From Ostreococcus lucimarinus (lineage: Eukaryota): a stretch of DNA of 64,000 bases. Location of the stretch: NCBI GenBank assembly GCA_000092065.1, contig CP000590.1, one strand, 5' to 3'. Below, piece by piece: positions 23,189 through 54,734 of the stretch; the first letter of the stretch is position 1; each line of letters starts with the position of its first letter. Under the pieces are notes generated by a model. That model worked only from the letters and a program-made list of their open reading frames with translations, searched no databases and had not been told where the DNA came from. The position numbers and the translations under genes are program-made.

Positions 23189-24137
23189 ATGGTTTCGCGA
23201 TCGATCGATCGCGCGCGCGGCGCGCGGGCGCGAGGACGCGACGCGCGGATGGCGACGACGGCGACGACGCGGGCGTGGGAGGATCTGCGCAAGGATGCGC
23301 GACGGACGGAGAGCGCGATAGAGCGCGAGCTCGGGGAGCTGAGCGCGCTCGGTGCGCGCGCGACGCGACGCGACGCGACCATCCGACGACGCGGGCGATT
23401 CGCGCGCGACGCGACCATCCGACGACGCGACGCGACGCGACGCGACGCGATGGCGCGAGCGGGCGATTGACGAGCGGCGACGGTGACGGACGATAGGAGC
23501 GAAAGCGCGGTACGGCGGCGCGGACGCGCGCGCGGCGACGCGGGACGCGGTCGAGACGATGGAAAGGGTGGAGCGAGAGATCGCGCGACTGCGAGCGATC
23601 GACGAGGACATGGCGCGCGCGCTGGAGGCGGATGACGAACGGGCGAGAAGCGCGAGCGGACGGGAGGGGGAGGGCGCGACGAGCGCGGGGTATCGAGACT
23701 CGCGGAGACACACGCTGCAGAGACATCGAGACGTGCTGCAGGAATACGCGGACGAGCTGCGGCGGTTGAGAAGAGACGCCGAGGACGCGGCGGAGCGGGA
23801 GAGTTTGTTGGGAGGACGCGCGGGGTCGAGCGCTTCGGGCGGACCCGACGAGAGCGCGGAGGCGAGGTTGATTCGTGAGCGCGCGCGCATAGCGGGGAGC
23901 GCGAGCGCGATGGACGATATCATCAGCGTGGCGCAGAACACGGCGCGAGAGCTCTTCGCGCAACGCGGAATTTTACAAAACGCCGGGGCGAAAATTTTAA
24001 CCATGACGAGCAAGTTTCCGGTGTTGAATAACTTGGTGCTGGCGATCAAGCGGAAAAAGAATAAAGATGCGATGATTTTAGCCGCCGTCGTCGCCGCGTG
24101 CACGACGTTCGTCCTGCTCTACTACTTGTCTAAATAG
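23189..24137 (+). CDS. GOS1: Golgi Qb-SNARE GOS1/GOSR1 (two exons: 23189..23351 and 23497..24137, intron 23352..23496)
   Basis: Exon 1 (ORF 23189..23470, first 54 aa) MATTATTRAWEDLRKDARRTESAIERELGELSAL matches GOS1 N-terminus (W..LRKQAR..E..LD); exon 2 (ORF 23559..24137 frame, open from 23487) RHTLQRHRDVLQEYADELRRL..., C-terminal TM LAAVVAACTTFVLLYYLSK. Donor G|GTGCGCG, acceptor GATAG|GA, phase 1, joins to ...LSAL-G-AKARYGG.... Confidence 0.7.
23352..23496 (+). other. Spliceosomal intron of GOS1 (GT..AG, phase 1) containing a ~33-bp direct repeat
   Basis: Donor CTCG|GTGCGCG, acceptor GACGATAG|GA; contains two copies of CGCGACGCGACCATCCGACGACGCG. Confidence 0.65.
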
Positions 24138-24202
24138 CCGTGTCATCGAAAGCCGAGAAATTGTTCGCGCTCGCGAGGGACTTCACGTCACACGCCGGCG
24201 CG

Positions 24203-25609
24203 ATGCGTCGCCCCGTGTTTTGCGTGGTCGTATGCATCGCCTTTTCGTCGTTCCACGTCGGCGACGCCGCGGAGTCATCGTGCCAAACGCTCGTGTTCTC
24301 CGGGCTTTCCACGTCGTGCAACTTGAACGGCGGACAGAGCTCGAGCGAGGACGCGTGTTGTCGAGCGCTCGACAAAGCGAACGCAAAACGCTGTTTTTGC
24401 GACAATCAACTTATGACGACGATTCAGTTAGTGATTGGAGAAAACGGCATCCAGTTTTTTCGAGACTTCGCGATTGGTTCGTGCTCTGGAGAACTCACGG
24501 AGGGTGAGGCGTGCGACGACGTCGCCGGCGACGACGGATCCGAGTGGGACGGCGTCATCGCGCCGCCGCCGCCGATGGACCACACACACACACATCGCGA
24601 TTTGGAGTTATCCGAGATTGAGTATTACACGCAAGACGTGCGAGGTTCGCCACCACCCGATCGTCGGCCGACGCCGCTGTTCCCAACGCGAGCGCCTCCG
24701 GAACGAGAAACCATCGCAAATTTCATACTCGATCCCAGACGCGACGCGGAGATTGGATTTACGGCGGACGCTCTCACGCTCACCGGCGTTCGGAACGACT
24801 TGGATTCCAATCAAACTTCAACGGTTTTCGTACCGACAAACGAGGCGTGGTACGCCCTGCTCTTTCGTCTCGGCGTCACGAAGGAGGAACTGTTCGCCGA
24901 CACGATTTGGCTGGCCGACGCGCTTCGATACCACATCGTCCGCGACATCGCGCACACCTCAAACATGGGTTTCGGAACTTCGCTTATGACTGATCTCGAC
25001 GACGAAGAGTTGCATGTGGAGAAGTATACCGATAGCAGGCGTTCGAACGTTCCCGTTCGCGTCAACGGATGCTTTGTTCATCCCGCGGCGAATCGCCGCG
25101 ACGTCAGAGTCGGCGACCACGGCGTCGTACACTATATCGATTGTGTTTTACTACCACCGCGGCACCCATTACCCACGTCGCGCACGCTGGCGCAATATAT
25201 TTCGTCAGAGCCGAGCGTGTCGATGTTCGCCAACGCGTTGGCGGGCTCGACGTTGATGTCCGAGCTCTGGAACGAATCCCGTAGGTTCACCGTCTTCGCG
25301 CCGACGAACGATGCGTTCGTGCGATTCTTGGGAGATCCACGCGTCGGGGCGACATTTTACGACGACGGCGTCTTTCGAGACATGCTGTCTCGCCACGTCG
25401 CGCTCGGATTCCACGAAATCTCTGAACTTGCCACCGGGCGCGCCTTGAAATCGCTCACCACCGTCGCCGGCGACGACGATCAAAGTCGCGTGTACGTGGA
25501 GACGCGACGACGAGGCGAAGTCTTCGTAAACGGATGCGCCGTCATCGGTGAACAAATTTTCGCGCGCGACGGCGCCGTACACTTCATCGACTGCGTGCTG
25601 ACTGACTGA
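24203..25609 (+). CDS. Fasciclin (FAS1)-domain protein, secreted (two FAS1 domains)
   Basis: Signal peptide MRRPVFCVVVCIAFSSFHVGDAAE; FAS1 signatures TVFVPTNEAW...LRYHIV...NGCFVHPAANRRDVRVGDHGVVHYIDCVL and FTVFAPTNDAF...LSRHVALG...NGCAVIGEQIFARDGAVHFIDCVL. Listed ORF starts 63 nt earlier (24140). Confidence 0.75.
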   Translation: MRRPVFCVVVCIAFSSFHVGDAAESSCQTLVFSGLSTSCNLNGGQSSSEDACCRALDKANAKRCFCDNQLMTTIQLVIGENGIQFFRDFAIGSCSGELTEGEACDDVAGDDGSEWDGVIAPPPPMDHTHTHRDLELSEIEYYTQDVRGSPPPDRRPTPLFPTRAPPERETIANFILDPRRDAEIGFTADALTLTGVRNDLDSNQTSTVFVPTNEAWYALLFRLGVTKEELFADTIWLADALRYHIVRDIAHTSNMGFGTSLMTDLDDEELHVEKYTDSRRSNVPVRVNGCFVHPAANRRDVRVGDHGVVHYIDCVLLPPRHPLPTSRTLAQYISSEPSVSMFANALAGSTLMSELWNESRRFTVFAPTNDAFVRFLGDPRVGATFYDDGVFRDMLSRHVALGFHEISELATGRALKSLTTVAGDDDQSRVYVETRRRGEVFVNGCAVIGEQIFARDGAVHFIDCVLTD

Positions 25610-25649
25610 AGACTGTATACGTAATGATACAACGTAATGATACAACAAA

Positions 25650-26369
25650 CTAAAACTCGAGCGAAGCGTCGCCGCCACCGTAATGAATCATCTCTGCCAT
25701 CGCGCACGCCACGCACAACGCAGCCACGCCGCCGAACACGCGATAAAACTCCCCCCACTCCACGTCGTCGCTCGCCGCGTTGTCGCTCGATCGACTCGGC
25801 GCCAACAACGAAAACACCTTGGCGTAACACCGCCACCCGAGCATCACCCCCAGCGCGGTGAGCGTCGACACCAGCAGCCCGTGAGATGCCTCTTGCGCTA
25901 ATCCGCCTTTCGTCGCGAACACGACCCCGACCGCTTGCAACGGCGCCCACACCGCCCACGTTTGGACGACTTCGCTCGTCGCGCGCCGCACCGACGGCGT
26001 CTCGTCCCAGTCGATTTCGTAACTCTTCGTCAAAACCGCGCTCACCACCACCCACAAGATCAGCGACCACGCCGCGTCGATCGAAAACGCCGCCGCGCTC
26101 CGCGCCGTGACCTCGATCGGGGCCAACCATCCTGGGAAATCCGCCGCCGCGCTCACCGCGGAGACTTTTTTATACAACAGAAACAGCCACAGCACCGTCA
26201 CGTCGCCGAGGACGAGCAGCCCGTCCTCGAGCGCGCGTCCTCGGTCGCGCGCGTCCTCTCGCGGGCGCGCGTCGTCGTCGCGCGCGTCGTCCGCGTCGTC
26301 GTCCAGCGCGCGCGTCGTTCGCGCGCGCGACGAACGCGCGCGCGCGGGTCTCGAGCGCCACGTCAGCAT
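25650..26369 (-). CDS. Hypothetical multi-pass membrane protein (about 5 TM) with R/S-rich presequence
   Basis: C-terminal 239 aa of ORF 25650..27146 (N-terminal 260 aa are Arg-rich and antisense to the FGGY kinase gene). TM segments LLVLGDVTVLWLFLLY, AWSLILWVVVSAVL, AVWAPLQAVGVVFA, LLVSTLTALGVMLGW, VFGGVAALCVACAMAEM. Alternative start 26504. Confidence 0.45.
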   Translation of the reverse strand: MLTWRSRPARARSSRARTTRALDDDADDARDDDARPREDARDRGRALEDGLLVLGDVTVLWLFLLYKKVSAVSAAADFPGWLAPIEVTARSAAAFSIDAAWSLILWVVVSAVLTKSYEIDWDETPSVRRATSEVVQTWAVWAPLQAVGVVFATKGGLAQEASHGLLVSTLTALGVMLGWRCYAKVFSLLAPSRSSDNAASDDVEWGEFYRVFGGVAALCVACAMAEMIHYGGGDASLEF

Positions 26370-26651
26370 CGAGACCGCCTCGCGCGCGCGCGCGCGGCGC
26401 GCGGGGCGCGCGGGGCGCGCGCGCGCGATCCACGCGCGCGTCGCGCGATCGGCGACCGCGCCGCGCGTCGCGCGACCGCGCGCCGCGACGCGCGCGAGCG
26501 CCATCGGCGACGACGCGTCAGTCTGTGCCGCGCCTCGCGCATGCGCTCGACGTCGACGCGGTCGACGAACGCGACGCGCGGCGCGCGACGCGACGCGACG
26601 CGCGAGAGCGCGCGCGTCTCGAGGCGCGGAACGGCGCGCGACGCGCGCGCG

Positions 26652-27980
26652 ATGCGGCGCGCGCGCGCGAGCGCGAGCGATGGGTGGTTGTACTGCGGCT
26701 TGGACTTTGGGACGTCGAGCGCGCGCCTGGCGCTCGTGGACGATCGAGGCGCGCTCGTCGGCGTGCGAACGAGGGCGTACGACGACGCGAACGCGAGCGT
26801 CGCGCGGGCGTGGGAGCGCGCGCTGTTCGAGCTGCTCGAGGACGCGATGGACGCGGAGGAGCGCGAGCGGTGCCAAGGCGTGGCGGTGGACGGCACGAGC
26901 GGGACGGTGGTCATCGTCGACGCGCGCGACGGGCGAGCGCTGCGAGAACCGTACATGTATAACGAAACGTTTCCAGACGAAGTAGAACGCGTGCGAGCGC
27001 TGAGGAACGGGCCGGGGAAGGATTCGACGGAGAGCGCGTCGAGCGCGGCGTGTAAACTTTCGAGATGGTTTCGCGTGGACGCGGAGGGAGACAGAGAGCA
27101 CGCGGCGCTGTTGCATCACGCGGATTGGTTGGCGTATCTGCTGCACAAGAAGATGGGCATGAGTGATTTCAATAACGCGTTGAAGCTTGGGTTCGATCCA
27201 GCGCCGGGGGTGGAGGCGTTTCCGGGATGGTTGCGAGACGCGCCGTTTGGGTACATGTTGCCGACGGACGTTCGCGCGCCGGGAACGTCGTTCGGCGTCA
27301 TGGACGCCGATGTGGCGAAGCGGTTAGGATTTCCGTCGACGTGTGAAGTCATCGCAGGGACGACGGATAGCGTCGCCGCGTTCGTGGCGTCGAAGGCGGC
27401 CGAATCGGGAGAGTGCGCGACGAGTCTCGGGAGCACGCTCGCGTTGAAACTCATCTCCGACACGCGCGTCGACGACCTGAGCTCGGGCGTGTACTCGCAC
27501 CGTCTCAACGGTCGGTGGCTCGTGGGCGGGGCGTCGAATCTGGGAGGATGGATTTTACGCAGATTCTTTTCCAACGACGCCCTCGAGTCGCTGAGCGAGA
27601 AAATAGCAAACGAAGGTTACGTCGCGACGGAGGATTATTTCGACGGGGTGATGCTAGGTTTCGGTCTGAGCGTCGACGAGGCGTCGGCGATCGTGGAAAA
27701 GTCACGACCGGCGGACGACGCGCAATTCGTGGTGAACATTCTCAGTTCCATCGCCAACGTCGAGGCGAGATGCTACGAGCGCATGCGAACGCTCGGGGCG
27801 TCGCACGGCGCGCGCAAAGTGTACACCGCGGGAGGTGGGGCGAAGAACGGCGTGTGGAGTGGCATGCGCTCGAAAGCCATGGGAGATATCCCTGTCGAAC
27901 GATCGGCGTGCGACGAAGCCGCGTACGGCGCGGCGCTCCTCGCTCGACAGGGAAGGAAACGGTTATCCGGCTACATTTAA
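26652..27980 (+). CDS. FGGY-family carbohydrate kinase (D-ribulose/xylulose kinase-like)
   Basis: C-terminal 443 aa of ORF 25935..27980: GLDFGTSSARLALVD (N-terminal ATPase motif), AGTTDSVAAFVAS, VYTAGGGAKNGVWSGMRSKAMG (C-terminal FGGY motif). Confidence 0.8.
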   Translation: MRRARASASDGWLYCGLDFGTSSARLALVDDRGALVGVRTRAYDDANASVARAWERALFELLEDAMDAEERERCQGVAVDGTSGTVVIVDARDGRALREPYMYNETFPDEVERVRALRNGPGKDSTESASSAACKLSRWFRVDAEGDREHAALLHHADWLAYLLHKKMGMSDFNNALKLGFDPAPGVEAFPGWLRDAPFGYMLPTDVRAPGTSFGVMDADVAKRLGFPSTCEVIAGTTDSVAAFVASKAAESGECATSLGSTLALKLISDTRVDDLSSGVYSHRLNGRWLVGGASNLGGWILRRFFSNDALESLSEKIANEGYVATEDYFDGVMLGFGLSVDEASAIVEKSRPADDAQFVVNILSSIANVEARCYERMRTLGASHGARKVYTAGGGAKNGVWSGMRSKAMGDIPVERSACDEAAYGAALLARQGRKRLSGYI

Positions 27981-28061
27981 CGCTGCGAGCCTTTCGCCGT
28001 TCGCTCGGCGGTGAGTGCCTACATTTAATAGAATTCGATATCGCAACGCTGACTAAGCCAA

Positions 28062-28775
28062 TTAGTTATCGTACGGGTTCAGCATCTTTTTGAACTTGGA
28101 CAACAAGTCATTCTCTTCCGCGCCCGCCGTCGTCGAATCGTCATCCTTGGTGAGTAAAATGACGTCGTCGAACGGATTCTTCTGACCTTGCTTTTCACGA
28201 ATTTGTTCCTCGGTGATCTTAGAGCTTTCGTCACGCTCGCGATAACCGTACTCAACTCTTCCGAACGCCGGCGGTTTCGCCAACGCGGGATACATCTTAA
28301 ACGCCGCCTCCTTCAAAGGCTTCTCCGCCGCCCAAATTTCCTTCTTGATATTACGCGGGCTCTCGCTCGCGAGAGGTCCCACGGGGAACCATTGATTAGG
28401 CCCAGCGGCGCGCACGAACACTTCGAAGATCGCTCCACCCTTCGCGACGATGGCGTCGAAGCGTTCCGCCGCCGCGACTTCCTCCGCGCTCGGCGGTTTC
28501 GCCTTCATCTGCTCCCCTTGCTTCCCACCGGTCTTCGCCTTACGCCTTTGAGGCTTTTGCGGTTTCGGCATCGGTTTGCCTCGTTTCGTCAACGCCGGCG
28601 CCTCGCTCGGCGCGACGAACGGCGATGGCGCGGCGCCATCGTTCGCGGCATCATCGTTCGCGGCGCGGCGAACGCACGCGACGCGACGCTCGTTCTTCGC
28701 CGCGCGCCGCGTCGTCGTCGTTCGCGTCGTCATTCGCGTCGTCGTTCGCGTCGCCGTCGCCATCGTCGTCGCCAT
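28062..28775 (-). CDS. Conserved hypothetical protein with S/T-rich plastid-like transit peptide
   Basis: 237 aa; N-term MATTMATATRTTTRMTTRTTTTRR; conserved-looking core FDAIVAKGGAIFEVFVRAAGPNQWFPVGPLASESPRNIKKEIWAAEKPLKEAAFKMYPALAKPPAFGRVEYGYRERDE; family not identified with certainty. Confidence 0.5.
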   Translation of the reverse strand: MATTMATATRTTTRMTTRTTTTRRAAKNERRVACVRRAANDDAANDGAAPSPFVAPSEAPALTKRGKPMPKPQKPQRRKAKTGGKQGEQMKAKPPSAEEVAAAERFDAIVAKGGAIFEVFVRAAGPNQWFPVGPLASESPRNIKKEIWAAEKPLKEAAFKMYPALAKPPAFGRVEYGYRERDESSKITEEQIREKQGQKNPFDDVILLTKDDDSTTAGAEENDLLSKFKKMLNPYDN

Positions 28776-28920
28776 CGCGTCGCGAGTCGGCGTGAGTATA
28801 TGTGACGTCAGATGTGACGTCGTTATCCACTGAAAAAGGTCGGGACGCGTTTCGATTCAGTTTGGTTCGGTTCGGTTCGGTTCGATTCAGTGCTACGCTA
28901 CGCTACGTGTACGTTCATCG

Positions 28921-31900
28921 TTAATGCGTCAAGCGCTGAAGCTCTTCGACGCGACGAATGATTTCGGCGCGATCGCACTTCATGTCAGCGGCGACGACGT
29001 CGGCTTGCTCGACTTTTAAGTCGAGAAACGATTCGACGAGGTCGCCGTCGACGAAATTCCTCGAAGGATCGCTCTTGCGGCGAAGCGTGTGGCGGAATGA
29101 ACGCCACTCCGCGTGTTTCAAGCCACCGACGCCTTGGATGTGCTTGTTCATGGAGGTTTGAAGGCGCTCGGCGAAATCGTAGGCGTCCTTCGGCAGACTG
29201 GCCAAGACGCCGATGACGCCGTTACCAGTGCCGAAGAGCAAAGTGGGGACTTCTAAACTGTCGCCATCTTTGAGGCTCATGACGAGTGAACCAGGAGAGA
29301 ACACGTTGACGAACTCACCTAGGTGATACTCGCCCGTGATTTCCAAACGACTACGCTCTTCGTCCGTCATAGCGTTCATGTTGCGAGCGACGGTAAACAG
29401 GTTCAAGCTGTTCTCGGCGCCGAGATAGGTTTCGTCATCGTCTAACATCGCCACCGCAGTCATCCAATTTGCGTTAAAGTCTCTCGCGATCTCGTCGATC
29501 GCGCCTTCTTCGGGCTTGTACTGTAACAGCGACATGGACTTAAGCAAATCGCCGACGAGAATCCAATCGCCTCTCGTCTTGACGGAGAACGTGATGATTT
29601 GGCCGTGGTGCGAGCACTCGCTCACCAGCTCGTGCGCGTCGTCTTCGCGCGGTGTCCATTTGAATAGCTCTAGCTTAGAATTGATCCCCGCGAGAAGTTT
29701 ACCCTTGAATGCGTTCAAGTTGTACACGGCGCCTCGAACTTCTTTCTCGGATACGAGTTCAAGGGCGTCCGCCTCAACGCGTAAGACGAGAATGCGCCCG
29801 CGCGACGGTTCATCTTCTTGCTCGTAAGCAAACCCCGTACCGACGACGTAGTACTCTCTCGAATCGCCCGCGAACGAGCACGACATCAAGGAACTCGCCA
29901 ATTCGTGCTCTTCTAATCGAAACTGGTGGAGCGTGTCAAACGAACCGTCGTCGATGAGTCTGATGAAGAGTTCTTGATCACCCTTCGACATCAAATGCTC
30001 GACCGCGACCGCGAATGTGTTCGTGTCGACCTGATGCGCGATCCTACGCGGGTGACCACCGAGTGGGATCGTGCGAATGTGCAGCTTTTGAATGTCGTCA
30101 ATCCCGCCGATGGTTAAATCTTCGTCGCCCGCCAACGCGAGAGCGTCCGGGAACGCTTCGCTGCTGAACGGACAGACATGCAACACCTCTTGCACGTTGA
30201 CGTTGGAGTAGATTAGCTTTTTGTTGTTGCTGAAGATCACCGTCGGCCTATCCGACGCCGCGAACACACTACTCACATTCGTCGCATGGCTCTTAAACGT
30301 TTGCAACGTAATCGGCTTGGTACCGAGGCTCAATTTTTTGCGCCCGCTCAAAGCCCCAGTGTTCTGATCTAAAACGTACGTGATCAACTGACCGTCACCT
30401 AAGCCTACGAACAAGTATGGAATGTCTTCGAACGAACACAGCAACGTCGATCGAGGGATGATGTCTTCATCTGTACTTTCTTTCGTGATGACGCTCAAGT
30501 CACTCATTGACGCGAGCACGATATCCATGGACCACAAACCAACCGCGCACACCGGCGAGCTCATCCCATCGCCCATGGGCGTGCAATCTAAGCAAGCTAT
30601 TTCGTTCTCGAATGTCTTACTCGCCAAGAGGACGATTTTGCCCTTCGCCACGTTCAAGCAGTGTAACTGCCCGCCCGCCGCTGCAACAAGAATTTGAGTC
30701 GGGTTGCACTTCGCCGAAAGAATCTCCGCACCGTCCTTTGGCTTCCATTCATCGAGTAAGTCGCCACCTCTTGAGACGAGGCGGACGCCCCTGTGCGTCA
30801 CTTGAAGGAAAACATTGCCTTGCATGTTGCCACAGCACAAAGTTTGCGCTTCAGCGTCGAAACCCGCAATTTCTGTCTCGTCCAACGTGTCCCCTTCGTC
30901 CCCGACAAAGCCCAAGATGCGAGTTTCGTTTATGAATGTGACGACCAAGTACTTATCCATTTGGCTATCGTCGCTATCGCGAAGTGAAAACAAGCCTTTG
31001 ACACCGGGAAGCTGAATCACCGCTTGCTCGTCAATGCCTATGCCGTTGCGCACTACGCGTAAACTCCCATCTTTTAACGCCCCGCTACACGTAACCACTT
31101 GCCCTTGACCGTGCCGCTCTAAGTCAACGAATGCAAAGTCTACAATGGGACCGAGATTGGTGAACTCTTCTAAAATTTGCACGTACGTCGGGTTGCCGTC
31201 TTTATCGATGCTCGTCTTCTCCGCGTGCAGCTTGATGAGTTGCGAGTCGCCGTACGTGCTACCGACGAATACCACGCCGTTATCGAGATAGCTAAGCGTA
31301 CTCGCGATTGACGTGTCGCCAAGTCTCTCAATTTTAAGCTCTCGAACGCGCTTGCCGTCGTGTAAGATGACGAGCAAGTAGAGCATGCCGTCCGCGTCGC
31401 CCAGCAGGTAGCGCGAGCCGTCCGGATCAATAGCGCCGTAGCACGTGATGTTCGTCCGATCGGGGATGTTGGGGATGTTGATCGCTTTGAGAAACACATC
31501 TGCGTCGTCTTCGAACTTGTTCAAGTACACGATAATTTCCTGCCCCAAGACGACGACACCGCCGATGGGCGCGGGGACCGGAATTATTTTATTCGAGCCA
31601 CCCTCTAAATCGTTCTGCGCCCAAGGCGACGACACGAATTCCTTCTCGCGAATGCCGATCTCGTACGTCTTAATGTGTACCGCATCTTTAGTGTCTCGGT
31701 AAAGCACCGCGATCGTCGGCTTGGGCGTGCCGTGCAAGAACTTGATGTCCTCCACGCGCAACTCCTCGAGGCGAATGTTAAACGCCTCCTTCACCCCGCC
31801 CTTTTCGTCGCACGGAATCACCTTGAATAATCCGTCGTACAGCCGCAACCCGATCGCTCGACACGTGTCATCCACGATCCCAATCTGTCCATCATCCGCC

Positions 31901-32413
31901 GGTCGACCGATATTATCCTGCACGTCCCCGAACGCCTCCGTCTTCAACTCTTCGTTCGCCTCGTCGTACGACAGCACCGTAAACCCATACCTCTCCGTCG
32001 TCAGGTACAACCGCGCCTTCCCATCGCCCGATCCCGTTTGGCACAGCGACATCGTCGCGATTCGACCATTTATCGGCACATCCAGCACCGGTTTCAGCCC
32101 CTCCGCGTGCAAGCGATACACCTCCAGTCGCGTGCTCTTCGCGACGATTAAATCAGTCGCCTCGCTCGACGTAAACTTTCCCACGGCCGAGTGCGTGACC
32201 ACGGTGGGTTTGTGCGCCTGCGGAAACCACGCGTCGTCGTCGTCGTCGTCGTCAGTCGATCGCTCGTCATCGCGCAGAGCGTCGCGCAGTCGGTCGTTCG
32301 CTCGGTCGTCAACGATCGAGCGTCGCGTCGCTTCGCGTCGTACGCGCGCGCGCGCACCGTGACGACGTAATTGTGCTGACACCGCGCGCCTGAACCGCTC
32401 TCGCGCGCGTCCT
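28921..32413 (-). CDS. DDB1: DNA damage-binding protein 1 (DDB1; CUL4 adaptor) - two exons: 32348..32413 and 28921..32217, intron 32218..32347
   Basis: Three beta-propeller architecture; exon 2 begins AHKPTVVTHSAVGKFTSSEATDLIVAKSTRLEVYRL (human [34 protein letters not shown]); exon 1 found by hand: ATG ACG AAC GAG ... AAT TAC GTC GTC ACG = MTNEDARESGSGARCQHNYVVT (human MSYNYVVT) followed by GTGCGCG donor; acceptor TTTCCGCAG|GCGCAC. The first ~100 aa of listed ORF 28921..32520 are intron/5'-region read-through. Confidence 0.85.
32218..32347 (-). other. Spliceosomal intron of DDB1 (130 nt, GTGCGCG...TTTCCGCAG, phase 0)
   Basis: See DDB1 feature; splice restores the conserved NYVVT-A(Q/H)KPT N-terminus. 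Confidence 0.75.
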
Positions 32414-32709
32414 CGTTCGTCATCGCGTCGAGGTCTTCGCGCGTCGCCGAGTGCGGATTGGCAGCTTGGATTGGGCGGCGACGGCGAGACGCGGCCGCGG
32501 CGCGCGCTTCGCGAGGGCATTCGGTCGTTCGAGGATCGAGCGGTGCGCGAGTTCGAGAAACGCAGATGCGCATATTTTGTGGCGTTGCAAAGGCAGGCTG
32601 GCGGCGGGGTGATGTCGATTTCGCGAAGCGCGAGGCGTGGGTGCGGGAAGCGCCGCGTCTGCGGCTGGCGGGAATAAAACGCGACGCGAGATGAGAACGC
32701 GGCGCGAGA

Positions 32710-33354
32710 TCACGACGCCACGGGACTCGGTTCGGCGTCTCGACGCTCCTGCTCGGTCATCTCCTCTAACTCTCGCAAATCGTCCACGTCGTCGTACTCC
32801 ACGCGCGCGCCCTCCACGACGGCGCACCGCTCCGCGGAGTGTTCGTTGAGCGCCGCGCGTAAAATCTTAATCTTCGCGATCGACGCCGAGAACTGCGCCA
32901 CGCACCCTTCGGTGCCGCGATAAAACTTAAAATACGGCAGCACCTTCACCCCCAGCGATTTGCACAGATCCTTATTCGCGTCGAAGTTCACCTTCACGAA
33001 GACGACGTCCGGGTACTCGGCCGCGATTTTACACAGCTTTGGATACAGCGCTCGGCACGCCCCGCACCATCGCGCGTACACGTCCACGACGACCAGTTTA
33101 TCGCTGTGTTCGTTCAGCACGCCCAGGAACGCCATCGTGTCGTCGCACTCGATCATGTTTTCTCCGCCGCCCTTCTCCCACCAGGGGTCTTTCGACGAGA
33201 TCCTCGCGCGCGCGCGCGTCCTCGCACCGCGCGCGTCCTCGCGCGCGCGTCCTCGCGCGCGCACCGCGACGTTCGCCGTCGCGAGCGTCGTCGCGCGCAT
33301 CGTCGTCGTCCGCGCGCCGTTCGCGCGTCGTCGCGTGCCGCGCACTTCACTCAT
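32710..33354 (-). CDS. TRX: Thioredoxin-like protein with atypical WCGAC active site and N-terminal transit peptide
   Basis: LVVVDVYARWCGACRALYPKLCKIAAEYPDVVFVKVNFDANKDLCKSLGVKVLPYFKFY thioredoxin fold; CGAC instead of CGPC resembles atypical plastid thioredoxins. Confidence 0.8.
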   Translation of the reverse strand: MSEVRGTRRRANGARTTTMRATTLATANVAVRARGRAREDARGARTRARARISSKDPWWEKGGGENMIECDDTMAFLGVLNEHSDKLVVVDVYARWCGACRALYPKLCKIAAEYPDVVFVKVNFDANKDLCKSLGVKVLPYFKFYRGTEGCVAQFSASIAKIKILRAALNEHSAERCAVVEGARVEYDDVDDLRELEEMTEQERRDAEPSPVAS

Positions 33355-33385
33355 TCATTCACTCACTCACTCACTCACTCATTCG
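33343..33385. repeat. (CACT)n/(CATT) microsatellite in thioredoxin / Dus divergent promoter
   Basis: cacttcactcattcattcactcactcactcactcactcattc read directly. Confidence 0.8.
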
Positions 33386-33561
33386 CGCGCGTCTCGGTCG
33401 AGACACCGCGACGCGACGCGACGCGACGCGCGATGACGACGACGTTCGAACGCGACGCGTCGTGAGCGCCTCGGTTCGAGCGACCTCGGCGCGAGCGACC
33501 TCGGCGCGAGCGACGACGCCGCCTCGACGACGCCGCCGCCGGAAGAGGCGCGACGGCACCG

Positions 33562-36167: not shown

Positions 36168-37368
<1,201 letters not shown>

Positions 37369-37463: not shown

Positions 37464-38375
37464 ATGTCGCGACGCGACGACGACGATCGCGATCGACGCG
37501 ACGCGCGCGAACGCGCGACGTCGCGCGAACGCGATCGAGACGACGGACGACGACGGGACGGCGGCGACGGCGCGCGATTCGGATCGAACGGCGGCGACGG
37601 CGAGCGACGGGACGAACGACGCGCGCGCGATGAGGACGAACGAGGACGAGGCGAACGACGGGATGGCGATAGGTTCGGGCGACGGGACGAGCGCGAGCGC
37701 GATCGAGGCGGGGGAGGCGGACGGGGGGGAGGGGAACGCTTCGACCCGGACGCGGATTGGAGGTGCGCGGAGTGTAATAATTCGAATTTTTCGTGGCGGA
37801 AGAGCTGTAAGCGATGCGGGGCTGGGAAATCGAAGGAATTGAAAGAGCGCGAGCGCGCGGCGCAGGCTGGGTGGTTGTTGGATGGGTTGGAGGACACGAC
37901 GAATCGAATCTTTATTAAAGGTTTCGACGCCGCGAGCACGAGCGAGGACGATTTGCGAGAGGTGTTCTCGGGGATCGGGATCATCTCCAGGGTGCGGCAG
38001 CGCACGGGATTCCCAGATCAATGGCCGTATGCGGTGCGCATATACCTGGATGAACGAGGACAAAAGAAGGACGAGGCGGTGATTACGTACGACGACCCGC
38101 ACGCCGCGCAGTCGGCGCCGAGCTTTTACGACGGGTACGAGTTGAACGGGAAGAAGCTCCACGTATCCATCGCGCAAAGTAAGCCGAAATCTGCGCCACC
38201 ACCGTCTTCGGGTGGTGGTGGTGGTGGCGGCGGTGGCGGCTACGGCGGCGGCGGCTACGGCGGCGGCGGTGGACGTGGCTACGGCGGCGGTGGACGCTCG
38301 TACGGGGGTGACCGACGCGACGATCGAGGCGGATATCGCGACGATAGAGGTGGATATCGCTCGCGGCCGTACTAA
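37464..38375 (+). CDS. FUS/TAF15-like RNA-binding protein: RD/RE-rich N-term, RanBP2-type zinc finger, RRM, C-terminal GGY/RGG repeats
   Basis: C-terminal 303 aa of ORF 36213..38375 (upstream 417 aa are antisense to ADK). DWRCAECNNSNFSWRKSCKRCG (RanBP2 ZnF W-x-C-x2-C...C-x2-C), RRM RIFIKGFDAASTSEDDLREVFSGIGII...DEAVITYDDPHAAQSAPSFYDGYELNGKKLHVSIA, then GGGGGGGGGGYGGGGYGGGGGRGYGGGG...RDDRGGY. Confidence 0.7.
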   Translation: MSRRDDDDRDRRDARERATSRERDRDDGRRRDGGDGARFGSNGGDGERRDERRARDEDERGRGERRDGDRFGRRDERERDRGGGGGRGGGERFDPDADWRCAECNNSNFSWRKSCKRCGAGKSKELKERERAAQAGWLLDGLEDTTNRIFIKGFDAASTSEDDLREVFSGIGIISRVRQRTGFPDQWPYAVRIYLDERGQKKDEAVITYDDPHAAQSAPSFYDGYELNGKKLHVSIAQSKPKSAPPPSSGGGGGGGGGGYGGGGYGGGGGRGYGGGGRSYGGDRRDDRGGYRDDRGGYRSRPY

Positions 38376-41745: not shown

Positions 41746-41966
41746 GTCACGGGGCGATCGTGGATTTCACATTTACGCGCGAGCGTCCCGTGCGCATGGG
41801 ACTCAGAACGACCCGAATACGCATCGTGGACGACGCGCACGCCACCAAAACCGCGATCGCGCGATCGCCACGCCCGCGCGTCGGCCGTCGCGCGCGCGTC
41901 GGCCGCGCGACGCGATCGCGTCGTCACTTCACGCATCGACGAAGCCAATGGTGCGCGCGATGCGAT

Positions 41967-42001
<35 letters not shown>

Positions 42002-42604
42002 GGACGAGGACGATCGAGGGCGCGCGCGCGAGACCGCGCGCGGGGCGCCGCGGCGGGGTTCGGGACGGGACGACGCGGGACGAGGATGTCGCGTTATCCG
42101 ACGTGGGCGATCGAGCGCGACGATCGGGACGCGCGATGGCGTCGCGCGCGACGCCGTGGGGGTCGCGATGCGCGCGAATGATGGGGAAAAAATTCGCGCG
42201 TCGAGTGACGCCGCGTCGAGGGCGAACGCGGGCGCGAGGACGCGAGGACGCGCGCGCGATGGGGCGTCGGGGACACCGCCACGGGGACATCGCGATCGAG
42301 CGCGCCGTCGGCGTCCGACGCCGCGCGAACGAAAGACGGCGCGGGGGCGACGCGACGCGGACGCGCGGCGCGACGAACGGGGCTCGTCTCGCGCTCTCGG
42401 AGCGTCGAACGGCCGCGCGGCGTGGGCGACGACGCGCGGGCGCCGCCGATCGCGCGCGCGCGGGGTGGATAAACCACCCGCGCGCGCGTCGAGGGGGTCG
42501 GGGCTGGGTCGCGACTCCTCGTCCACGACGAATAGTGTTGAATCGACCGCGAGAAGCGCCGAGACTGACCGAACGCGCGCGCGTGTTTTTCGTGTTGTTT
42601 ACAG

Positions 42605-44019: not shown

Positions 44020-46050
<2,031 letters not shown>

Positions 46051-46065
46051 CTATCACGAAAAAAT

Positions 46066-46845: not shown

Positions 46846-47065
46846 GCACCGCGCGCGCGCGCGTGCGGCGAATCGAATTGGCGCGCGCGGGGACGCGATT
46901 GGCCGGCGCGACGCGATTCGCCGCACACGACGACGCGCCGACGCGCGACGATCGCGCGAGGAGCTCGGGCGCGCGTGTCGCGTTTCCACGGTCCCGACGA
47001 AGGCGATGACGCGAGTCGAACGCGCGCGAAACGGACGACGAACGACGACGACGACGACGATCAAG

Positions 47066-47650
47066 ATGATGCTCGTCGTCGCGCTGGGCGCGCTGGCGTG
47101 CGCGTTCGTCGCGACGCCGGTGCTCGCGGAAAAGCGCGCGCCGAAAGTCACCGATAAGGTGTTCTTCGACGTGACGATCGACGGTGAACCCGCGGGGCGA
47201 ATCGTCATGGGGCTGTACGGGAAGACGGTGCCGAAGACGGCGGAAAACTTCAAGCAACTCGCGACGGGGGAGAACGGATTCGGGTACAAAGGCTCGGGAT
47301 TCCATCGAGTGATCAAGAACTTTATGATTCAGGGTGGTGATTTCACCAATCACGACGGCACCGGGGGGAAGTCGATCTACGGCGCGCGATTCCCGGATGA
47401 AAACTTCAAGCTCAAGCACGAGGGGCCGGGGACGCTGTCCATGGCCAACGCCGGGCCGGACACGAACGGGTCGCAGTTTTTCATCTGCACCGTCAAGACG
47501 AGCTGGCTGGACGGCCGACACACCGTCTTCGGGCGCGTGCTCGAGGGCATGGACGTCGTGACGGCGATCGAAAACCTCGAGGGGACGCCGCCGCAAAAGC
47601 CGGTGCTGATTGCCGACTCGGGCGTCTTACCGATGGACGCCGAACTTTAA
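47066..47650 (+). CDS. CYP: Cyclophilin B-type peptidyl-prolyl cis-trans isomerase (secretory, signal peptide)
   Basis: C-terminal 194 aa of ORF 46580..47650: signal peptide [21 protein letters not shown]; [63 protein letters not shown]. Confidence 0.9.
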
Positions 47651-47733
47651 ATCGACGCGTCACTTTAATTATCTATGCGCGCGCGCGTGCATACGTTGTC
47701 AATGCTGCTAAAATAAAATTACATTCGCTCGAT

Positions 47734-50700
47734 CTAATCGTCGCGATTGATCGTCGCGAGCATCGCCTCGACGTCGGCGTGTGTCTCCGGAACGACGACG
47801 CCGAATTCCTCGGCGACGACTTGTTCTATCACGTTCGATACAGAAGCCAGGAGTCGTGGAAAGTCGGCGCTGGAACCACCGCGTGCGATGATGGCTGACT
47901 TGATTCTTTCCTCCGCCAAACGCGCGCGAAGACGCAGGGCGAAAAATTCTCGCGACGTCTCCCAGGGGATGACAGCCTTGATCGCCTTCTTGTGCAGCAT
48001 CACGCCCGGAGTGTCGTGCAAAGCGGCAAAGTGCACGGCGAGCTGTTTGAATGTCGGCATGAGTGCTTTTTTCTTCGCCTCGTCTTCGTGCGAGTCACCG
48101 ATGCCTCCGGGAATCGTGCGCTTCATCGTCGACAGCAAATCTTGACGCCTGAATTTGATATCGACGATGCCCTCGGGCTCGAGGACGCCGCCCTTGGCGC
48201 CTTCGGCGGCGTAGAATTCCATTTGCTCCGGATTGATGGAGCTATCGATGACCACCCAAGCGCCTCCGCGAAGTTCTCCGCCTTGAGGAATGTACACAAA
48301 CACCGGCTGTTTGTACTCGCGAAGCGCGTCGACGATGTAGGCGCCGTACTTTAAAACTTCGCCGTACATATCTCGCAAACCGCCGGCGAAACCGCGCCAG
48401 TTGGCAAAGATTATGAGAGGTAGTCCTTCGCGATTCATGTCGCCGATCGCTTGCGCGGTTTTGAACGCGCTGTCGGGGAACCAGACTTGACCAGCTTGAG
48501 ACTCTTCCGCGATTTGTGCGCTCGCAAACGCCGGATCTGCGGGAATCGTCTTGTCCACGGTTCGCGTCTCCACGGCGACGGCGCCGATGGGCACGCCGCC
48601 GAGACGCGCGCGACCTGTGATGACAGTTCGTCCCCAGTCGGGCATGACTTCCATGAACGAATCAGTGTCGAAGAATGAGTGCAGTAGCTCACGTGGATCG
48701 TGCGGAGAGGAAGGAGGATTGAACGTCACGTAACGTCGCACCGGATCGACGCACGGGACGCAGGGGAGCGGCGCGCCGCGCCGGCTGGGTACGTATGACA
48801 ACCATTGAAGAATATTCTTCACACCGTGCACGTCATCGGGTACGGTAAGATGAGATACCCCGTTGGCGCCCATGACTTTAGGACCGCCTATTTGCGAGTT
48901 GCTCGTGTAAACTTCGCGACCGAGCACCTTATTCAATGCGCTCGCGCCGGTTAAAATCAACGGCGCGTCGACGTGCTGAACCACACGTTGGCATAGACGA
49001 GAGCAATACGCACCGATACCGACGCTCCTACCGGTGACGTAGGCCATCGTCACTGTGTGTTTGTACGCACGACTCGTCGCCGCGGCAATCTCACCGGATC
49101 CTTGTAAGCACTCGACGCTCTGTCCTCCGCACACATCCGTCAGCGCGTAATGAATCTCGTCGCGGTAAACGATTCGCTTCGCCTTGACCCGACCCTTCGC
49201 GGACAAGATCTCGTAGTCATCTTCGCTGAGGTAAATGTACTTGAAACCTTTAGAGACGTCATCATCGTCGACCCACTTCACTCTGAACGCCGCCTTGACG
49301 GCTTCGTCGAGACCGATGCGCGCGCCACTATTGGAGCTGATGTAAACGCACGGCAAACCTTCAGCCACAGCGAGATCAAACGCGGCGCGGTAGACACTGT
49401 CTTCCGGCGGAGACAAAGAACCGGACATGTGCGTGATATCATTCGCAACGAGAATGATTTCACGTCCTTTCGGATACTCTGTTGTCGCCAACTTGACGCG
49501 CCAGCAAACCATGCCAACTTCGTTCAGCCCTGGCGCACGATCGCTGCAAACGAGCGCTCGCGTCCTTGGGTCAAAGATGAGCTCCATGAGATCGATGATG
49601 TCGCCTACGCCAGGGTTGATTTCGGCAAGGACATTCGCAAATATTTCTGGAATGTCGTATACGTACGTCGAGGACAAGTTTTGGCACGCCATTCGCTTGC
49701 GCTGAATCTTGTTCAACCGAGGGTGCACGTCACGCGCGGCGCAATCCAGCGTCTTCGTGATTTTAAATCGTAAGCCACTGGTGTTCATCGCGATGACTGA
49801 ACCCGTGCCGACGCGCACTTCGACACATGCAACCTTCAACCGCTTCAAATCGTTGAACGCAGTGTGAATGAACGAAGCTATCGCCGCTTCAACGCTCGGC
49901 AAATCGTCCTCGGCGTCGGCGCCGACGAGATTAATGAAGACGTGGTTCGCGGCAGTGCGATGACGACCCACCGCAAGCTCAAGAGAGCCGAGAACATCAG
50001 CGAACACGCTATCATCGTGCACGCCGCTCGAACTACCACCTATCGTCGTTCGAGCCAACTCTGAGTCCATGGTCACACTTCCCAAAGCTGTGCGGCGCGG
50101 CGTTCCTTCAGACGGGCTGTTTTCAAACAGCAAGTCCTTGTTGTAAACCGCTGCTCGCAAAAACACGCGACGATCGCGCTGGGGTTGCTTGTGCCCAGGC
50201 TTGACATTCGGTTCCTCAGCGAGAAATACACCGACAGTGTACTCAGACGGTGTCACAAAATTCGTGTGACGATGATGGGAACGAGAGCTCAAAACGCCTA
50301 CGCACTCGACCCGGAAGAGTGCGAGCCGTTCGACCTCCATCTGATCGGCAATGTGAGGCCAAAACCCACGTGCGCTCGACATTTCACAAAAACCTTCGAC
50401 TGTGGAATCTTCAGAAGTACGCTTAAACGCGAAATGATGCGGCTTGGCGTCGAGCGCCAGCAACGTGACCACGACGTATTCGAGGCCTTCGCACTTGAGG
50501 GCACCAGCCAGGTACTGTCCAGTCACAAAAGCCTCCGCGGCGGCTCGAATATCGGTGTCGTTCCTACCCACAAGTCTATGATACGAGATGATGAAGTGCA
50601 ACTTCTTCGGTTTGTTCGCCGTCGCATCGGGAAGCGCCGCCACCGCGTGTCCAAGAGATGGGGCAAAGAGATGAATGGTGTCGTCGAGCCAGACTCGCAT

Positions 50701-53700
50701 GACTTCTGGTTCGCATGCGCACGGTTCGGGCTGAGCGTTCGGAATCATGTACGTATCTACGCCAGTCGCGCCGAATAGAGTCTCAATCGCTGTAGTTCGC
50801 GACGTTTCGGACGTACTGTCGAACAAGCTCTCCCAAGTGTGCGCGTCCAAAATCTCATCCGTGGCTTCGTCGATGTTGCTGTACGACTGATACCGTGTGA
50901 TGGAGTTGTGCCGATCGAGGTAAATGTTACCGACGTATCTCTTGAACGAAGGATTGCTGTCCGACGCCTCGTTGTCACTCGCAGCGTTACTCATGAGATC
51001 TGACTCGCTACCGGCACTCGTCTTTGACAGAGACGCCGAGCGCTTCTTGCGCTTGGCGTCGTCAAGGGAAATTTGCGCGAAGGCAGAAAAGGACTCGTCG
51101 CGAGACATGCGGTTGGCCCGAGAAGCCGCAGCCATGCGTTCGCGTCTCGACTTACGTGTCATCTCTTGCTTACGCACGATGATTTCGCGCGCTGTCTGGG
51201 AAACCAATTCGTAGTCGCGCCCAGAAAGATTCATACAACGCACCACGGCGGCGTTGCACGACGGTATGTCGATCATATCGTGCAACGAAATTTGTTCGAG
51301 GATCTTCAAAACCAAATCCGATCTACGCTTGAGTTTGGCGTTTGCATGTGCATACTTTGCGACGACTGAAACATCGTTGCGGTAGCGATCGCGTAAGAAC
51401 ATGATGGCGTCCTCGGTCGACGCGCAGCTCGAGAAGGGCTCTTCCGTGTCCAAGAACGATTCCAAGTATCGCGTCAACACGCGCGCCCTACTCTGCGCCA
51501 ATCCGCCGTCATGACGTTCGCAAAATGCCGCTAGCGGTGCAAAGTCAGCGCCGTACTCGTTGATCAAGGCTCTAACGCGCATGACCGCAGCAGATACGGC
51601 GTCTGTCGTGTTTTCTCCATTCGCCTCGCCGACGATGGACGCCGACATCGCTTCGGCGATCTCGCGCAGCTCGAGTCGCGCCGACGGACGAGCACGCGAA
51701 ATCACGGCTTCTCGCGACTCCATAAAATCATCCACGACGAGTGGTAGCGTGCCGAGCACGTCAAATAACACTTCGGTCGGATCACCATTGTAATCGTAAC
51801 CAGCCAAAATTTGGTCGACACCAGTGCTTGTGCGCGAGAATCGAACCAGCGGAGAGTCATCCGGTAACATGCCTGTTAACGAACGCGTGTGCATTTTCGT
51901 AAACTCTCCCGTGAACGGCGCACACCTACGCACACCGGTAGCGTCTTCGACGGCAACATCACACAAAACATCGCCTGCTTCTAAAATCGCGCCTACACGC
52001 GCCACGTGCCGAATCGTCCCCGTGCTCGTCGCAATCAGAGGCATCACCGTCTTCATAACCTCGATCTCGCAGTAAGGTTGATTGGATTCCACGCGCTCGC
52101 CGTCGCAAATCAAGTACTTGAGCAGTTTTCCAGGACCTTGGGCGATGAGCTTGGTGGCGTCAAAATCATCGGGGAAGAAACACGGCAACCCGTTGACGTG
52201 AATCTTCATTCCAACTTTCGTTTCCTCGGGGTGGACCAAGTACGCGCGACCGTCCAAGAGCACCTTCAAAGCGCCGTCTTGCAACACAAGAACTTCGGCT
52301 TCGATGAGACCTCCGTTTATGTGAAGATAAAACAGCTTCTCACTCCCCATGGTTACGCGCAAGTTATACTTGATGTCGTTGTAAATCAGCTCAAAGTTGT
52401 GTTCGCTGAGATTCGTCATCCACGTCTCAGGCGGGACGCCTCGATTCAGATACGAGGCGACTTCGGCCTCGAGTTTTTGATGCCTCGTCGATGATCTAAG
52501 CACAGCCCCACACGCGACTACGATGTGCTCGTGCAACGTCTCTGCTCTGTCGCTCGCCGCGATAAGACCATCCAGCCAAGCGGTGTCGTGTTCGTCGGCT
52601 AAGAATTCTGGCTTCTCCAACAACTTCCCCAAGTACTTTTTGTTGCAGTGAATCTCCCCGCGGACGCTTAACTCGCTCAGCGCGTGCGTGAGTAAAGTGA
52701 TGGCTTCCGCCCGACTTGGCTTGAAAGCGAAGATGTGTCCAAACTGCGAGTCGGCGAATTGATGAACTCCGCCCGAGGTGCCGACGGAAAATGATCCATT
52801 CACGCCCGGGAGCGAACGGAAATGAAGCTCGTGAATGGCACCAGACGTAGGCTTGAAACCGCTGTCGGGATCTTCAGCGGTGATTCTTCCCGCCACGCAA
52901 TGACCGAGCGGCGGAATCGGCGTAGTGTTATCGAAATCGATAGAAGAAACCCCGCGTACGTCGCTTTGCTGGAAGAATCGACGGACGTCCGGAATCTTGT
53001 TCAACGGTATCCCCATCGCGAGCTGCAGCTGTACTGCGGGCAAGTTCACCCCAGTTATCTGCTCTGTCACTGGATGTTCCACTTGTAGACGAGGATTGAC
53101 TTCGAGAAACGAGTATTCGCCAGTCTTGATGTTGTACAAGTACTCCACGGTACCGACGCCACAGTAGCCAACCTTTTTCGCCAGTCGCACGGCGCCGCGC
53201 TCGAGCTCTTCACACAATGCCCTCGGCGCCACGGTGATTGGACCTTCTTCAATGATCTTTTGATGTCGGCGCTGAACGGAACAGTCACGACCATACAGCG
53301 CGATCGCTTGACCGTGCGCGTCGGCAACCATTTGAACTTCTAAATGTCTTGAATCCACGCTAAGCTTTTGGATGAAAATCGGCGAACCCGGGACTTCGGC
53401 CTGGACCTGGGCGAAACCAGTTTTGAGTTCCTCGATCGAGTTCACCTTGCGAATACCTTTCCCACCACCCCCTTCCGAAGCCTTGATCATGACCGGAAAA
53501 CCAATCTTTCCCACTCGCTGCACCGCGTCGGCGACGTCTGTGAGCGTCGCTTGCTTCAAGACGTCCTCCGGAATGCTCGTGCCGGGTACCGTGAGACCGC
53601 TACCAGACCAAGGGATGACATTCACGTCACACGATTGCGCGAGGATGTTCGCACAAATCTTGTCTCCAACGGCGTCCATGGCAGATGCTGGTGGACCCAA

Positions 53701-54734
53701 AAATGCAATATCGTGATACGCCAACTGCGACGGCAGCTGCGGATTTTCGCTCGCGTGTCCCCAACCCGGCCACACCGCGTCTGCGCCGCACGTTCGCGCC
53801 ACTTTGACGATCAAATCCACGTTTGCGTAATTGTTTCTATTGCTCCCCCCCTCCACGGTGATGAATTCATCGGCTAACCGGATGTATCTATGTTTAGAAT
53901 GGGACGTCGTTATCATCCGAGCCTGTCAGTCTCGTCGAAACGCGAAAACGCTTCGAGCGCGAATTCGCCGCCGACGATCGCGAGATGAGCGCCAATCACG
54001 CGACGTTCGCATCGCACGCACTCTGCATTCGCCGCTAAATCGTCTGGCGTCGCCATGCACACCAAATGCAAAACTTCGTGCGACTTGAACGTCTCGTACG
54101 CCCACAGACGCATCGACCGAATCGCCTTCACCGCGCCCACTGCGTGTCGAAAAATTCGCACTCGCGTCAGTCATTATCGCGCGCGCGCTTCACTTTTACG
54201 ATTTCGCGCGCGCCATCTCCCACGACCGCGTCGTCGGCGACGAAATTCGTCTCGAACGCGTCGGACCCTCGTCGGGACGAGCGTTACGACGACTCGGATA
54301 ACGACGTCCCCGTCGCGCCTTCGTCGGCGCCGCGCGCGTCGCGCGCGCGTCGCGCATCACGCACATCCATTATTCGCGATTAAAACCTTCCGTATCGATC
54401 GCACGCCTCCCCGCGAGAGGACGTACGCCTCGTACGCCGCGTCGAGGTCCTCGCGCGGACTCGCGCGCACGAGACCTCGGTCCATCGAACGTCGCGGCAG
54501 CCGCTCGCGCGCGGCGCCGTCGTCCGCGTCGCGCATCTCGCGCGCGGCGCTCGTTCGCGCTCGTTCGCGCGCGCGATCGCCGTCGACGGCCGTCGTCGAC
54601 GCGTCGCGCTGTGTCGGACGACGCGCGCGGCGTGGGAGACCGCGAGACATGACAGGAGGGACGCGAAACACCCGGGAGATCGCCGCCCGTTCGAACGCCC
54701 CGACCGACCGAAAGGACGCCGCTCGTCGACACAC
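47734..54734 (-). CDS. ACC1: Homomeric (multidomain) acetyl-CoA carboxylase; three exons: 54365..54734, 54022..54139, 47734..53887
   Basis: Main ORF 47734..53916 (2060 aa): biotin carboxylase (NNYANVDLIV, GGGGKGIR, RDCSVQRRHQKIIEEGPITVAP, LEVNPRLQVEHPVTE), BCCP biotinyl-Lys motif CEIEVMKTVMPL, carboxyltransferase domain. BC N-terminus is split over two upstream ORFs in other frames: 54357..54734 (...SIRKVLIANNG) and 53913..54161 (AVKAIRSMRLWAYETFKSHEVLHLVCMATPDDLAANAE). Introns placed by hand: donors GGAT|GTGCGTG and GCAGA|GTGCGTG, acceptors CACGCAG|TG and AAACATAG|ATAC; spliced product ...IANNG-L-GAVKAIRSMRLWAYETF...LAANAE-YIRLADEFITVEGG matches plant/yeast ACC (IANNGMAAVK...ANAEYIRMADQYIEVPGG). 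Confidence 0.9.
53888..54021 (-). other. ACCase intron 2 (134 nt, GTGCGTG...CATAG)
   Basis: Joins ...LAANAE to YIRLADEFITVEGG; phase 2. Confidence 0.75.
54140..54364 (-). other. ACCase intron 1 (225 nt, GTGCGTG...CACGCAG)
   Basis: Joins ...KVLIANNG to (L)GAVKAIRSMRLWAYETF; phase 1; exact junction less certain than intron 2. Confidence 0.55.

Follow-up and report, generated by a model that had tools for sequence, protein, structure and literature searches.

In a 64,000-nucleotide stretch of Ostreococcus lucimarinus DNA (contig CP000590.1; hereafter, the window), an earlier note made from the sequence alone had placed four introns, one each in GOS1 and DDB1 and two in the gene for acetyl-CoA carboxylase (ACC), and had likened their shared donor heptamer to the signatures reported for introner-like elements. 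We are highly confident that all four are ordinary GT-AG spliceosomal introns, presumably of the U2 type, belonging to the intron-poor, high-GC part of the Ostreococcus nuclear genome. The heptamer and a branch motif that they also share are exactly the published Ostreococcus signature, which was already known, and they reveal nothing biologically new. The basis for this assignment, as observed here, is (i) the intervals themselves and the restoration of the reading frames on their removal; (ii) the common branch motif; (iii) the absence of similarity between the intron interiors; and (iv) the conservation of intron positions across lineages.

All four GT..AG intervals are present in the sequence, two of them beginning with GTGCGCG and two with GTGCGTG. 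In GOS1, encoding a Golgi SNARE, exon 1 (23249..23351 (+)) starts with the ATG at 23249 and comprises MATTATTRAWEDLRKDARRTESAIERELGELSAL plus the first base of a Gly codon; its WEDLRK..AR motif aligns with GOSR1 homologues. The GOS1 intron (23352..23496 (+), 145 nt, phase 1) runs from GTGCGCG to GACGATAG, with GATAG as acceptor, and contains the branch-like sequence GATTGACG at 23465..23472 (+), the branch A lying 26 nt from the 3' end. The second exon, which extends to the stop codon (23497..24137 (+)), begins with the GA that completes the Gly codon and continues as AKARYGG. DDB1 is encoded on the other strand, with exon 1 at 32358..32423 (-) (ATG at 32423; MTNEDARESGSGARCQHNYVVT) and an intron at 32218..32357 (-) (140 nt, phase 0) that has the donor GTGCGCG, the acceptor TTTCCGCAG and the branch sequence GACTGACG, whose GACTGAC lies at 32251..32257 (-). 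Exon 2 of DDB1, up to the stop codon (28921..32217 (-)), has 99% identity with the metagenome cluster P0121, compared to 84% with O. tauri. The coordinates first proposed for the GOS1 intron and both ACC introns were correct, but the DDB1 donor is at 32357 rather than 32347, making this intron 140 nt long instead of 130 nt.

Exon 1 of ACC (54365..54650 (-)) ends in ...IRKVLIANNG plus a T; its start codon at 54650 is tentative, with alternatives at 54536 and 54485. Intron 1 (54140..54364 (-), 225 nt, phase 1) has the donor GTGCGTG, the acceptor CACGCAG and the branch sequence GACTGACG at 54166..54172 (-). It is followed by a 118 nt exon 2 (54022..54139 (-)), which encodes (L)GAVKAIRSMRLWAYETFKSHEVLHLVCMATPDDLAANA(E), and by intron 2 (53888..54021 (-), 134 nt, phase 2), in which the donor is again GTGCGTG, the acceptor is AAACATAG, and GACTGACA at 53925..53931 (-) represents the branch site. 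In exon 3, which extends to the stop codon (47734..53887 (-)), an A completes the Glu codon and YIRLADEFITVEGG follows.

Spliced in this way, the three genes encode stop-free products of 247 (GOS1), 1120 (DDB1) and 2185 (ACC) amino acids, and the introns follow codon 34 in GOS1, codon 22 in DDB1, and codons 95 and 134 in ACC. The spliced junctions read ...CQHNYVVT/AHKPTVVTH... in DDB1, and ...VLIANNG/LGAVKAIRS... and ...AANAE/YIRLADEF... in ACC (slashes mark the junctions). The restored N-termini that the earlier note had quoted, NYVVT/AHKPT and ANAE/YIRLADEF, are thus seen, and they match both O. tauri gene models and a relative that lacks the introns; likewise, in the open reading frame (ORF) list all three genes are broken or mis-started, as had been reported. 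In that relative (L001/L025), which lacks both ACC introns, the coding sequence IANNGLGAVKAIRS...ANAEYIRLADEF is contiguous and agrees exactly with the spliced model. The description of these introns as lying near 5' ends in the intron-poor, compact genome of a green alga also holds, the junctions being backed by the O. tauri models, by other Ostreococcus lineages and by the intron-free relative.

Since the junctions had been placed by hand so as to mend reading frames, and since the unspliced DDB1 ORF is open through the interval, one might attribute the interruptions to frameshifts from assembly or sequencing, an alternative that had been named from the start, or to pseudogene lesions. However, the intervals are reproduced in contigs that stem independently from metagenomes and belong to the same species: across the two ACC introns, L006 has 100% and L007 98.5% identity. 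In a 97% identical relative (L008), the ACC introns are 215 and 132 nt long, as compared to 225 and 134 nt in the window, so that the length differences are not multiples of three, while exon 2 stays at 118 nt; moreover, the introns of this relative are less identical to those of the window (85% and 91%) than the flanking exons are. As the intervals are reproduced in same-species contigs and diverge in the manner of non-coding sequence, sequencing frameshifts are excluded. Several other species also have the intervals, again bounded by GT..AG and containing a branch motif, and a length of 134–225 nt is far beyond that of any frameshift error. We therefore give practically no weight to lesions of either kind.

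Coincidence would be another way of explaining the identical donors, given the CG-rich composition of this DNA and the freedom with which junctions can be chosen, and GTGCGYG is indeed found 109 times in the window, which is only 1.8 standard deviations above the number expected from shuffles (92 ± 9.6). Yet only 1.36% of the GT sites in the window carry the heptamer, and within ±45 nt of the four junctions the frame and stop constraints leave no more than 1, 3, 3 and 6 admissible donors, the GOS1 donor being the sole frame-compatible one in its interval. With so few admissible donors, the joint chance of finding the heptamer at four of four junctions is about 2e-6, as a rough upper bound, and the sharing of the donor is therefore real. 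In addition, an independently placed intron in the GAPDH gene and three unverified candidates, described below, start alike. A chance origin of the shared donor is, in our estimation, extremely improbable.

The four introns have a second signal in common that the earlier note overlooked, a (G)A(C/T)TGAC branch site located 26–38 nt before the 3' AG. The branch-like octamers are GACTGACG in DDB1 and ACC intron 1, GACTGACA in ACC intron 2, and GATTGACG in GOS1. Three of the nine GACTGAC sites in the window lie within these four introns and four more lie within further confirmed or candidate 5' introns. GACTGAC nevertheless occurs in the window at chance frequency (9 sites versus 9.5 expected), and a generic signature scan of the window (GTGCGY + NCTGAC + AG) was not enriched, yielding 12 donors versus 28 ± 7 in second-order Markov simulations. 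Therefore, the motifs alone are without predictive power for introns, and coding context and homology are needed. As for the 3' ends, the sequences originally listed are all present, albeit in an order other than that of the genes. The pyrimidine-rich stretch attributed to all four is found in DDB1 (TTTCCGCAG) but not in the other three introns, in which the pyrimidine fraction over the last 20 nt is 0.35–0.60. The GC content of the introns is 0.57–0.74, and no preference for AG was seen on the exon side of these introns.

These properties agree with what has been published. Introns of O. lucimarinus outside chromosome 2 that are confirmed by expressed sequence tags have the atypical donor consensus GTGCGTG (4.8 bits), and ACTGAC is found in 87% and GACTGACG in 66.5% of the introns outside this chromosome (Irimia & Roy 2008, PMC2483917). 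Like those introns, the introns of the window combine a GTGCGTG-type donor with an ACTGAC/GACTGACG branch site near the 3' AG, reside in a high-GC, intron-poor context with about one intron per interrupted gene, and have lengths of about 100–250 nt. Nothing of substance differs from that consensus: in the window, C and T are equally frequent at position +6 (GTGCGCG in GOS1, DDB1 and GAPDH), and GOS1 uses GATTGACG. A similar combination, AG/GTGCGT with NCTGAC, characterizes the canonical non-repeat introns of Micromonas, which have been set apart from its introner elements (Verhelst et al. 2013, PMC3879977), and a donor preference printed as 'GYGCGY' has been reported for the Mamiellales (Roy & Bowser 2022, bioRxiv 10.1101/2022.06.08.495308).

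In Ostreococcus, the few introns that remain outside the outlier chromosome obey unusually strict signals, namely the 5' site GTGCGTG (GTGCG[C/T]G in the window) and the branch site GACTGACG, followed 20–40 nt downstream by the first usable AG, with little or no polypyrimidine tract. On this reading, the 5' ends of the four introns resemble each other because the same strict spliceosome reads all of them, rather than through descent from a common mobile element. The C at position +4 of the donor does not pair with the standard 5' end of U1. The U1 pairing region was reported to be standard in every species in which a candidate U1 was identified, with no compensating change (bioRxiv 10.1101/2022.06.08.495308); since this includes the Mamiellales, recognition of the C at +4 would not proceed via a compensating change in U1. 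An Rfam scan of the window detected no small nuclear RNA, and U1/U6 complementarity is accordingly argued here from the literature.

A further alternative, raised by the earlier note, is that the four introns form an introner-like family, made up of mobile intron-generating elements that have multiplied recently and bring along their own splice sites, such as those of Micromonas pusilla CCMP1545. The common donor heptamer, the similarly short lengths (134–225 nt), the high GC content and a mamiellophycean host whose sister genus has introners would all suit this idea. Introners of Micromonas pusilla, fungi and other protists (Worden 2009; Verhelst 2013; Simmons 2015, PMC4540971) are likewise short and have strong, uniform splice signals and, like those of Micromonas, the introns of the window sit in a genome of the Mamiellophyceae. 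However, introners are multi-copy, similar in sequence and lineage-specific, whereas the four introns of the window are unrelated in sequence and ancient in position. When the introns were aligned with each other, as the earlier note had suggested, their interiors proved no more alike than shuffled sequences (local alignments of all six pairs; z = -1.5 to +0.8 versus dinucleotide shuffles), and BLAST searches of the introns against the window matched only low-complexity (GACGC)n and (CG)n. Internal direct repeats were noticed by eye, no dedicated search for transposon hallmarks having been made, in the GOS1 intron and in a candidate intron of a PRPP synthetase gene, where they lie inside the introns and not at their ends.

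Comparison with relatives, for which the O. tauri introns were reconstructed from gene range and product length, showed the positions to be old. The O. tauri DDB1 protein (CEF99488.1) reads ...GRCRFNYVVT/AHKPT, and its gene has a 172 nt intron at the same codon boundary (GTGCGTT..GACTGACG..CACGCAG). A third Ostreococcus species (L004), whose protein reads GRCQHNYVVT, has an intron at the site found in the window (GTGCGCG..AGACTGACC..TGTAG). The GOS1 intron of O. tauri (130 nt, GTGCGAT..GATTGACG..GCGCAG, phase 1) is displaced by one codon from that of the window in the protein alignment and has the branch variant GATTGACG in common with it, while the GOS1 intron of the third species (GTACGGG..GGACTGACGG..GAAG/GA) interrupts the same Gly codon, in the same phase, as in the window. 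Elsewhere in the syntenic block, further O. tauri introns carry the same splice signature.

For ACC, a scan of metagenome loci recovered both introns in five Ostreococcus lineages (100/97%, 93%, 91–92%, 89% and 88% identity), and exon 2 is 118 nt long in all four of the lineages checked. Across the five, the donors of intron 1 are GTGCGTG, GTACGTG, GTACGTG, GTACGTC and GTGCGTG, with CGACTGACGC always present, and those of intron 2 are GTGCGTG, GTACGTG, GTACGTG, GTACGTG and GTGAGTA, with GAGACTGAC invariant. More distant loci fell into a Micromonas-like group (GC 0.59–0.69) and a Bathycoccus-like group (GC 0.44–0.48), both assigned from GC content and identity alone. Micromonas-like loci keep ACC intron 1 at the same site (GTGCGTC in L026, GTGCGTT in L028); in Bathycoccus-like loci, in which a donor was not located, the reading frame breaks at the same exon 2 boundary, and intron 1 is probably common to these relatives as well. 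Conversely, intron 2 is absent from Micromonas-like and Bathycoccus-like loci (L021–L041), which read through ANAE/YIRLADEF. As judged from these loci, intron 2 is confined to Ostreococcus, having been either gained in the Ostreococcus stem or lost elsewhere, and intron 1 is older.

These comparisons speak against introners: the sites are conserved in O. tauri and the third species (DDB1, and GOS1 to within one codon) or in five Ostreococcus lineages (ACC), reaching to Micromonas-like and, by the exon 2 boundary, Bathycoccus-like loci for ACC intron 1. Moreover, orthologous introns have diverged donors (GTACGTG, GTGAGTA, GTAAGTC, GTACGGG), and the heptamer itself is the published canonical consensus of introns that are not repeats (PMC2483917, PMC3879977), so that it does not serve as an introner-like signature. 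With neither repeat-family similarity among the four introns or within the 64 kb window nor a recent lineage-specific insertion at these sites, we rejected the introner family, which we consider very improbable.

Several points weigh against our assignment of the four as ordinary spliceosomal introns. Our search for copies of the introns reached the 64 kb window and the fetched loci rather than the whole genome, and we infer from sequence, rather than from transcripts, that the intervals are excised in this organism, the O. tauri gene models and the conservation between species lending this indirect support. The heptamer alone, with its 109 occurrences, is non-diagnostic in DNA as CG-rich as this, and at position +6 two of the four introns have C where the published consensus has T. 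In GOS1, the acceptor could be at 23496, 23499 or 23505, and the branch motif is a one-base variant.

The strict GTGCGYG + GACTGAC signature recovered one more well-supported intron and three unverified candidates in the window. The former, which the earlier note did not include, directly follows the ATG (41948..41950 (+)) of the GAPDH gene and spans 654 nt (41951..42604 (+)), with the donor GTGCGCG, the branch sequence GAGACTGACC at 42563..42569 (+) and a genuine pyrimidine-rich tail, ...TGTTGTTTACAG. The spliced gene encodes 380 amino acids, just as many as its O. tauri orthologue, which likewise begins with ATG/GTAGGTG. The first candidate is a 250 nt interval in the 5' region of the PRPP synthetase gene (1027..1276 (+), GTGCGTT...GACTGACG...AACAG), whose splicing would be in frame and which carries an internal direct repeat of GCGTTTGAACGCGCG. 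Two further candidates lie in the 5' region of a gene for an NAD-dependent epimerase, possibly SQD1-like: candidate 1 at 45675..45865 (-) (GTGCGCG...GACTGACC...GACGAG) and candidate 2 at 45335..45623 (-) (GTGCGCG...GACTGACG...TTTCGCGAG). Both are ambiguous: together they amount to 480 nt, which is divisible by three, so that the frame is also open without splicing.

Intron turnover is also seen within the window. Where the thioredoxin genes of O. tauri (190 nt, GTGCGTC..GACTGACG) and the third Ostreococcus species (starting GTGCGCG) have an intron, at FL..LL/N.HSDKL, that of the window (32719..33201 (-)) is uninterrupted, a precise intron loss in the lineage of the window. A 70 nt intron in the neighboring '255 aa' gene of O. 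tauri is absent both from the window (25680..26231 (-)) and from the third species.

Some introns contain conserved words other than splice signals. The GAPDH first introns of the window and O. tauri are otherwise unalignable, and the sole block common to them that is not of low complexity is a perfect 17-mer, TCGCGTTATCCGACGTG (window 42089..42105 (+); O. tauri L003 586..602 (-)), which lies 139 nt from the donor in the window and about 113 nt from it in O. tauri. The core of this 17-mer, GTTATCCGA, occurs three times in the window versus 0.4 expected, recurring in ACC intron 1 (54294..54302 (-)) and inside the fasciclin coding region. ACC intron 1 also contains a TAACGC hexamer (window ~54280..54290 (-)) that is present in five of five Ostreococcus lineages (L006, L009, L013, L016, L017), 79–95 nt from the donor; besides splice signals, the only words of this intron common to the five lineages are TAACGC and a low-complexity GCGCGCGA run at variable positions. 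We take GGATAA and ACGTG to resemble the I-box and G-box cores of plant light-response elements, which is a lead only, and a literature search on the GTTATCC/GGATAA motif in Ostreococcus returned nothing relevant. That some 5' introns owe their retention to elements controlling transcription or splicing is conceivable but, in our view, unlikely.

Hemiascomycete yeasts are the textbook case of strict splice signals in an intron-poor genome. Like the window, they have near-invariant 5' and branch sites, introns biased toward the 5' end, and introns right after the ATG (GAPDH in the window), but the consensus differs, being GTATGT + TACTAAC in the yeasts, whereas the Ostreococcus donor has C at +4. 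The singleton introns of Micromonas RCC299 and CCMP1545 (PMC3879977) share the GTGCGT donor and the NCTGAC branch. However, the introns of the Micromonas-like loci have pyrimidine-rich 3' ends (0.73–0.87 over the last 30 nt) and the one branch site located is 50 nt from the acceptor, whereas in the window the branch is at 26–38 nt, a pyrimidine tract is mostly missing and exons show no preference for a terminal AG.

From DDB1 identity and gene order, the window can be assigned to the nuclear genome of an Ostreococcus (Mamiellophyceae) species other than O. tauri. It belongs to the ordinary high-GC part of that genome. Its GC content is 0.54–0.70 throughout, so that it is not a low-GC, intron-dense outlier region. 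Gene order matches the O. tauri chromosome 10 record CAID01000010.2, the common order being GAPDH, response-regulator/WD40, PfkB, WD40, Dus, thioredoxin, DDB1, HHL1-like, FGGY, fasciclin, GOS1 and DEAD helicase. A search with the full-length DDB1 protein returned a 99% identical cluster (P0121), consisting only of ORF calls from marine metagenomes, an 84% identical cluster that includes O. tauri CEF99488.1/XP_022839863.1, and Micromonas commoda at 56%.

Two further observations concern the annotation of other loci. By Rfam, the window contains a tRNA at 10102..10248 (-) (47.7 bits; anticodon loop CUUUG, probably Gln-UUG, with an insert of about 76 nt), where ARAGORN reports none. In the O. tauri '274 aa' gene (L003 4275..5161 (-)), which corresponds to 37740..38207 (+) of the window, the gene model has a 62 nt non-consensus 'intron' at a place where the window and the third Ostreococcus species encode 21 extra residues, (E/D)QCNNSNFSWRKSCKRCGAGKSK, presumably resembling a RanBP2-type zinc finger; this 'intron' probably reflects an annotation error.

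Earlier publications already describe the atypical consensus, how strictly it is kept in the intron-poor part of the genome, and the absence of a compensating change in U1; the main value of the present analysis is for annotation. Because the unspliced DDB1 frame is open through the intron, a false ORF of 1199 amino acids results in the window, and public metagenome protein sets (P0121) contain a DDB1 of 1198 amino acids whose first 77 residues are spurious, the translation having run through the intron (gene 28921..32520 (-)). Similarly, the public metagenome clusters P0002–P0010 are ACC fragments whose N-termini lie at the start of exon 2 or within this exon. ORF-based calling in Ostreococcus-like genomes thus mis-starts or truncates genes that have a 5' intron.

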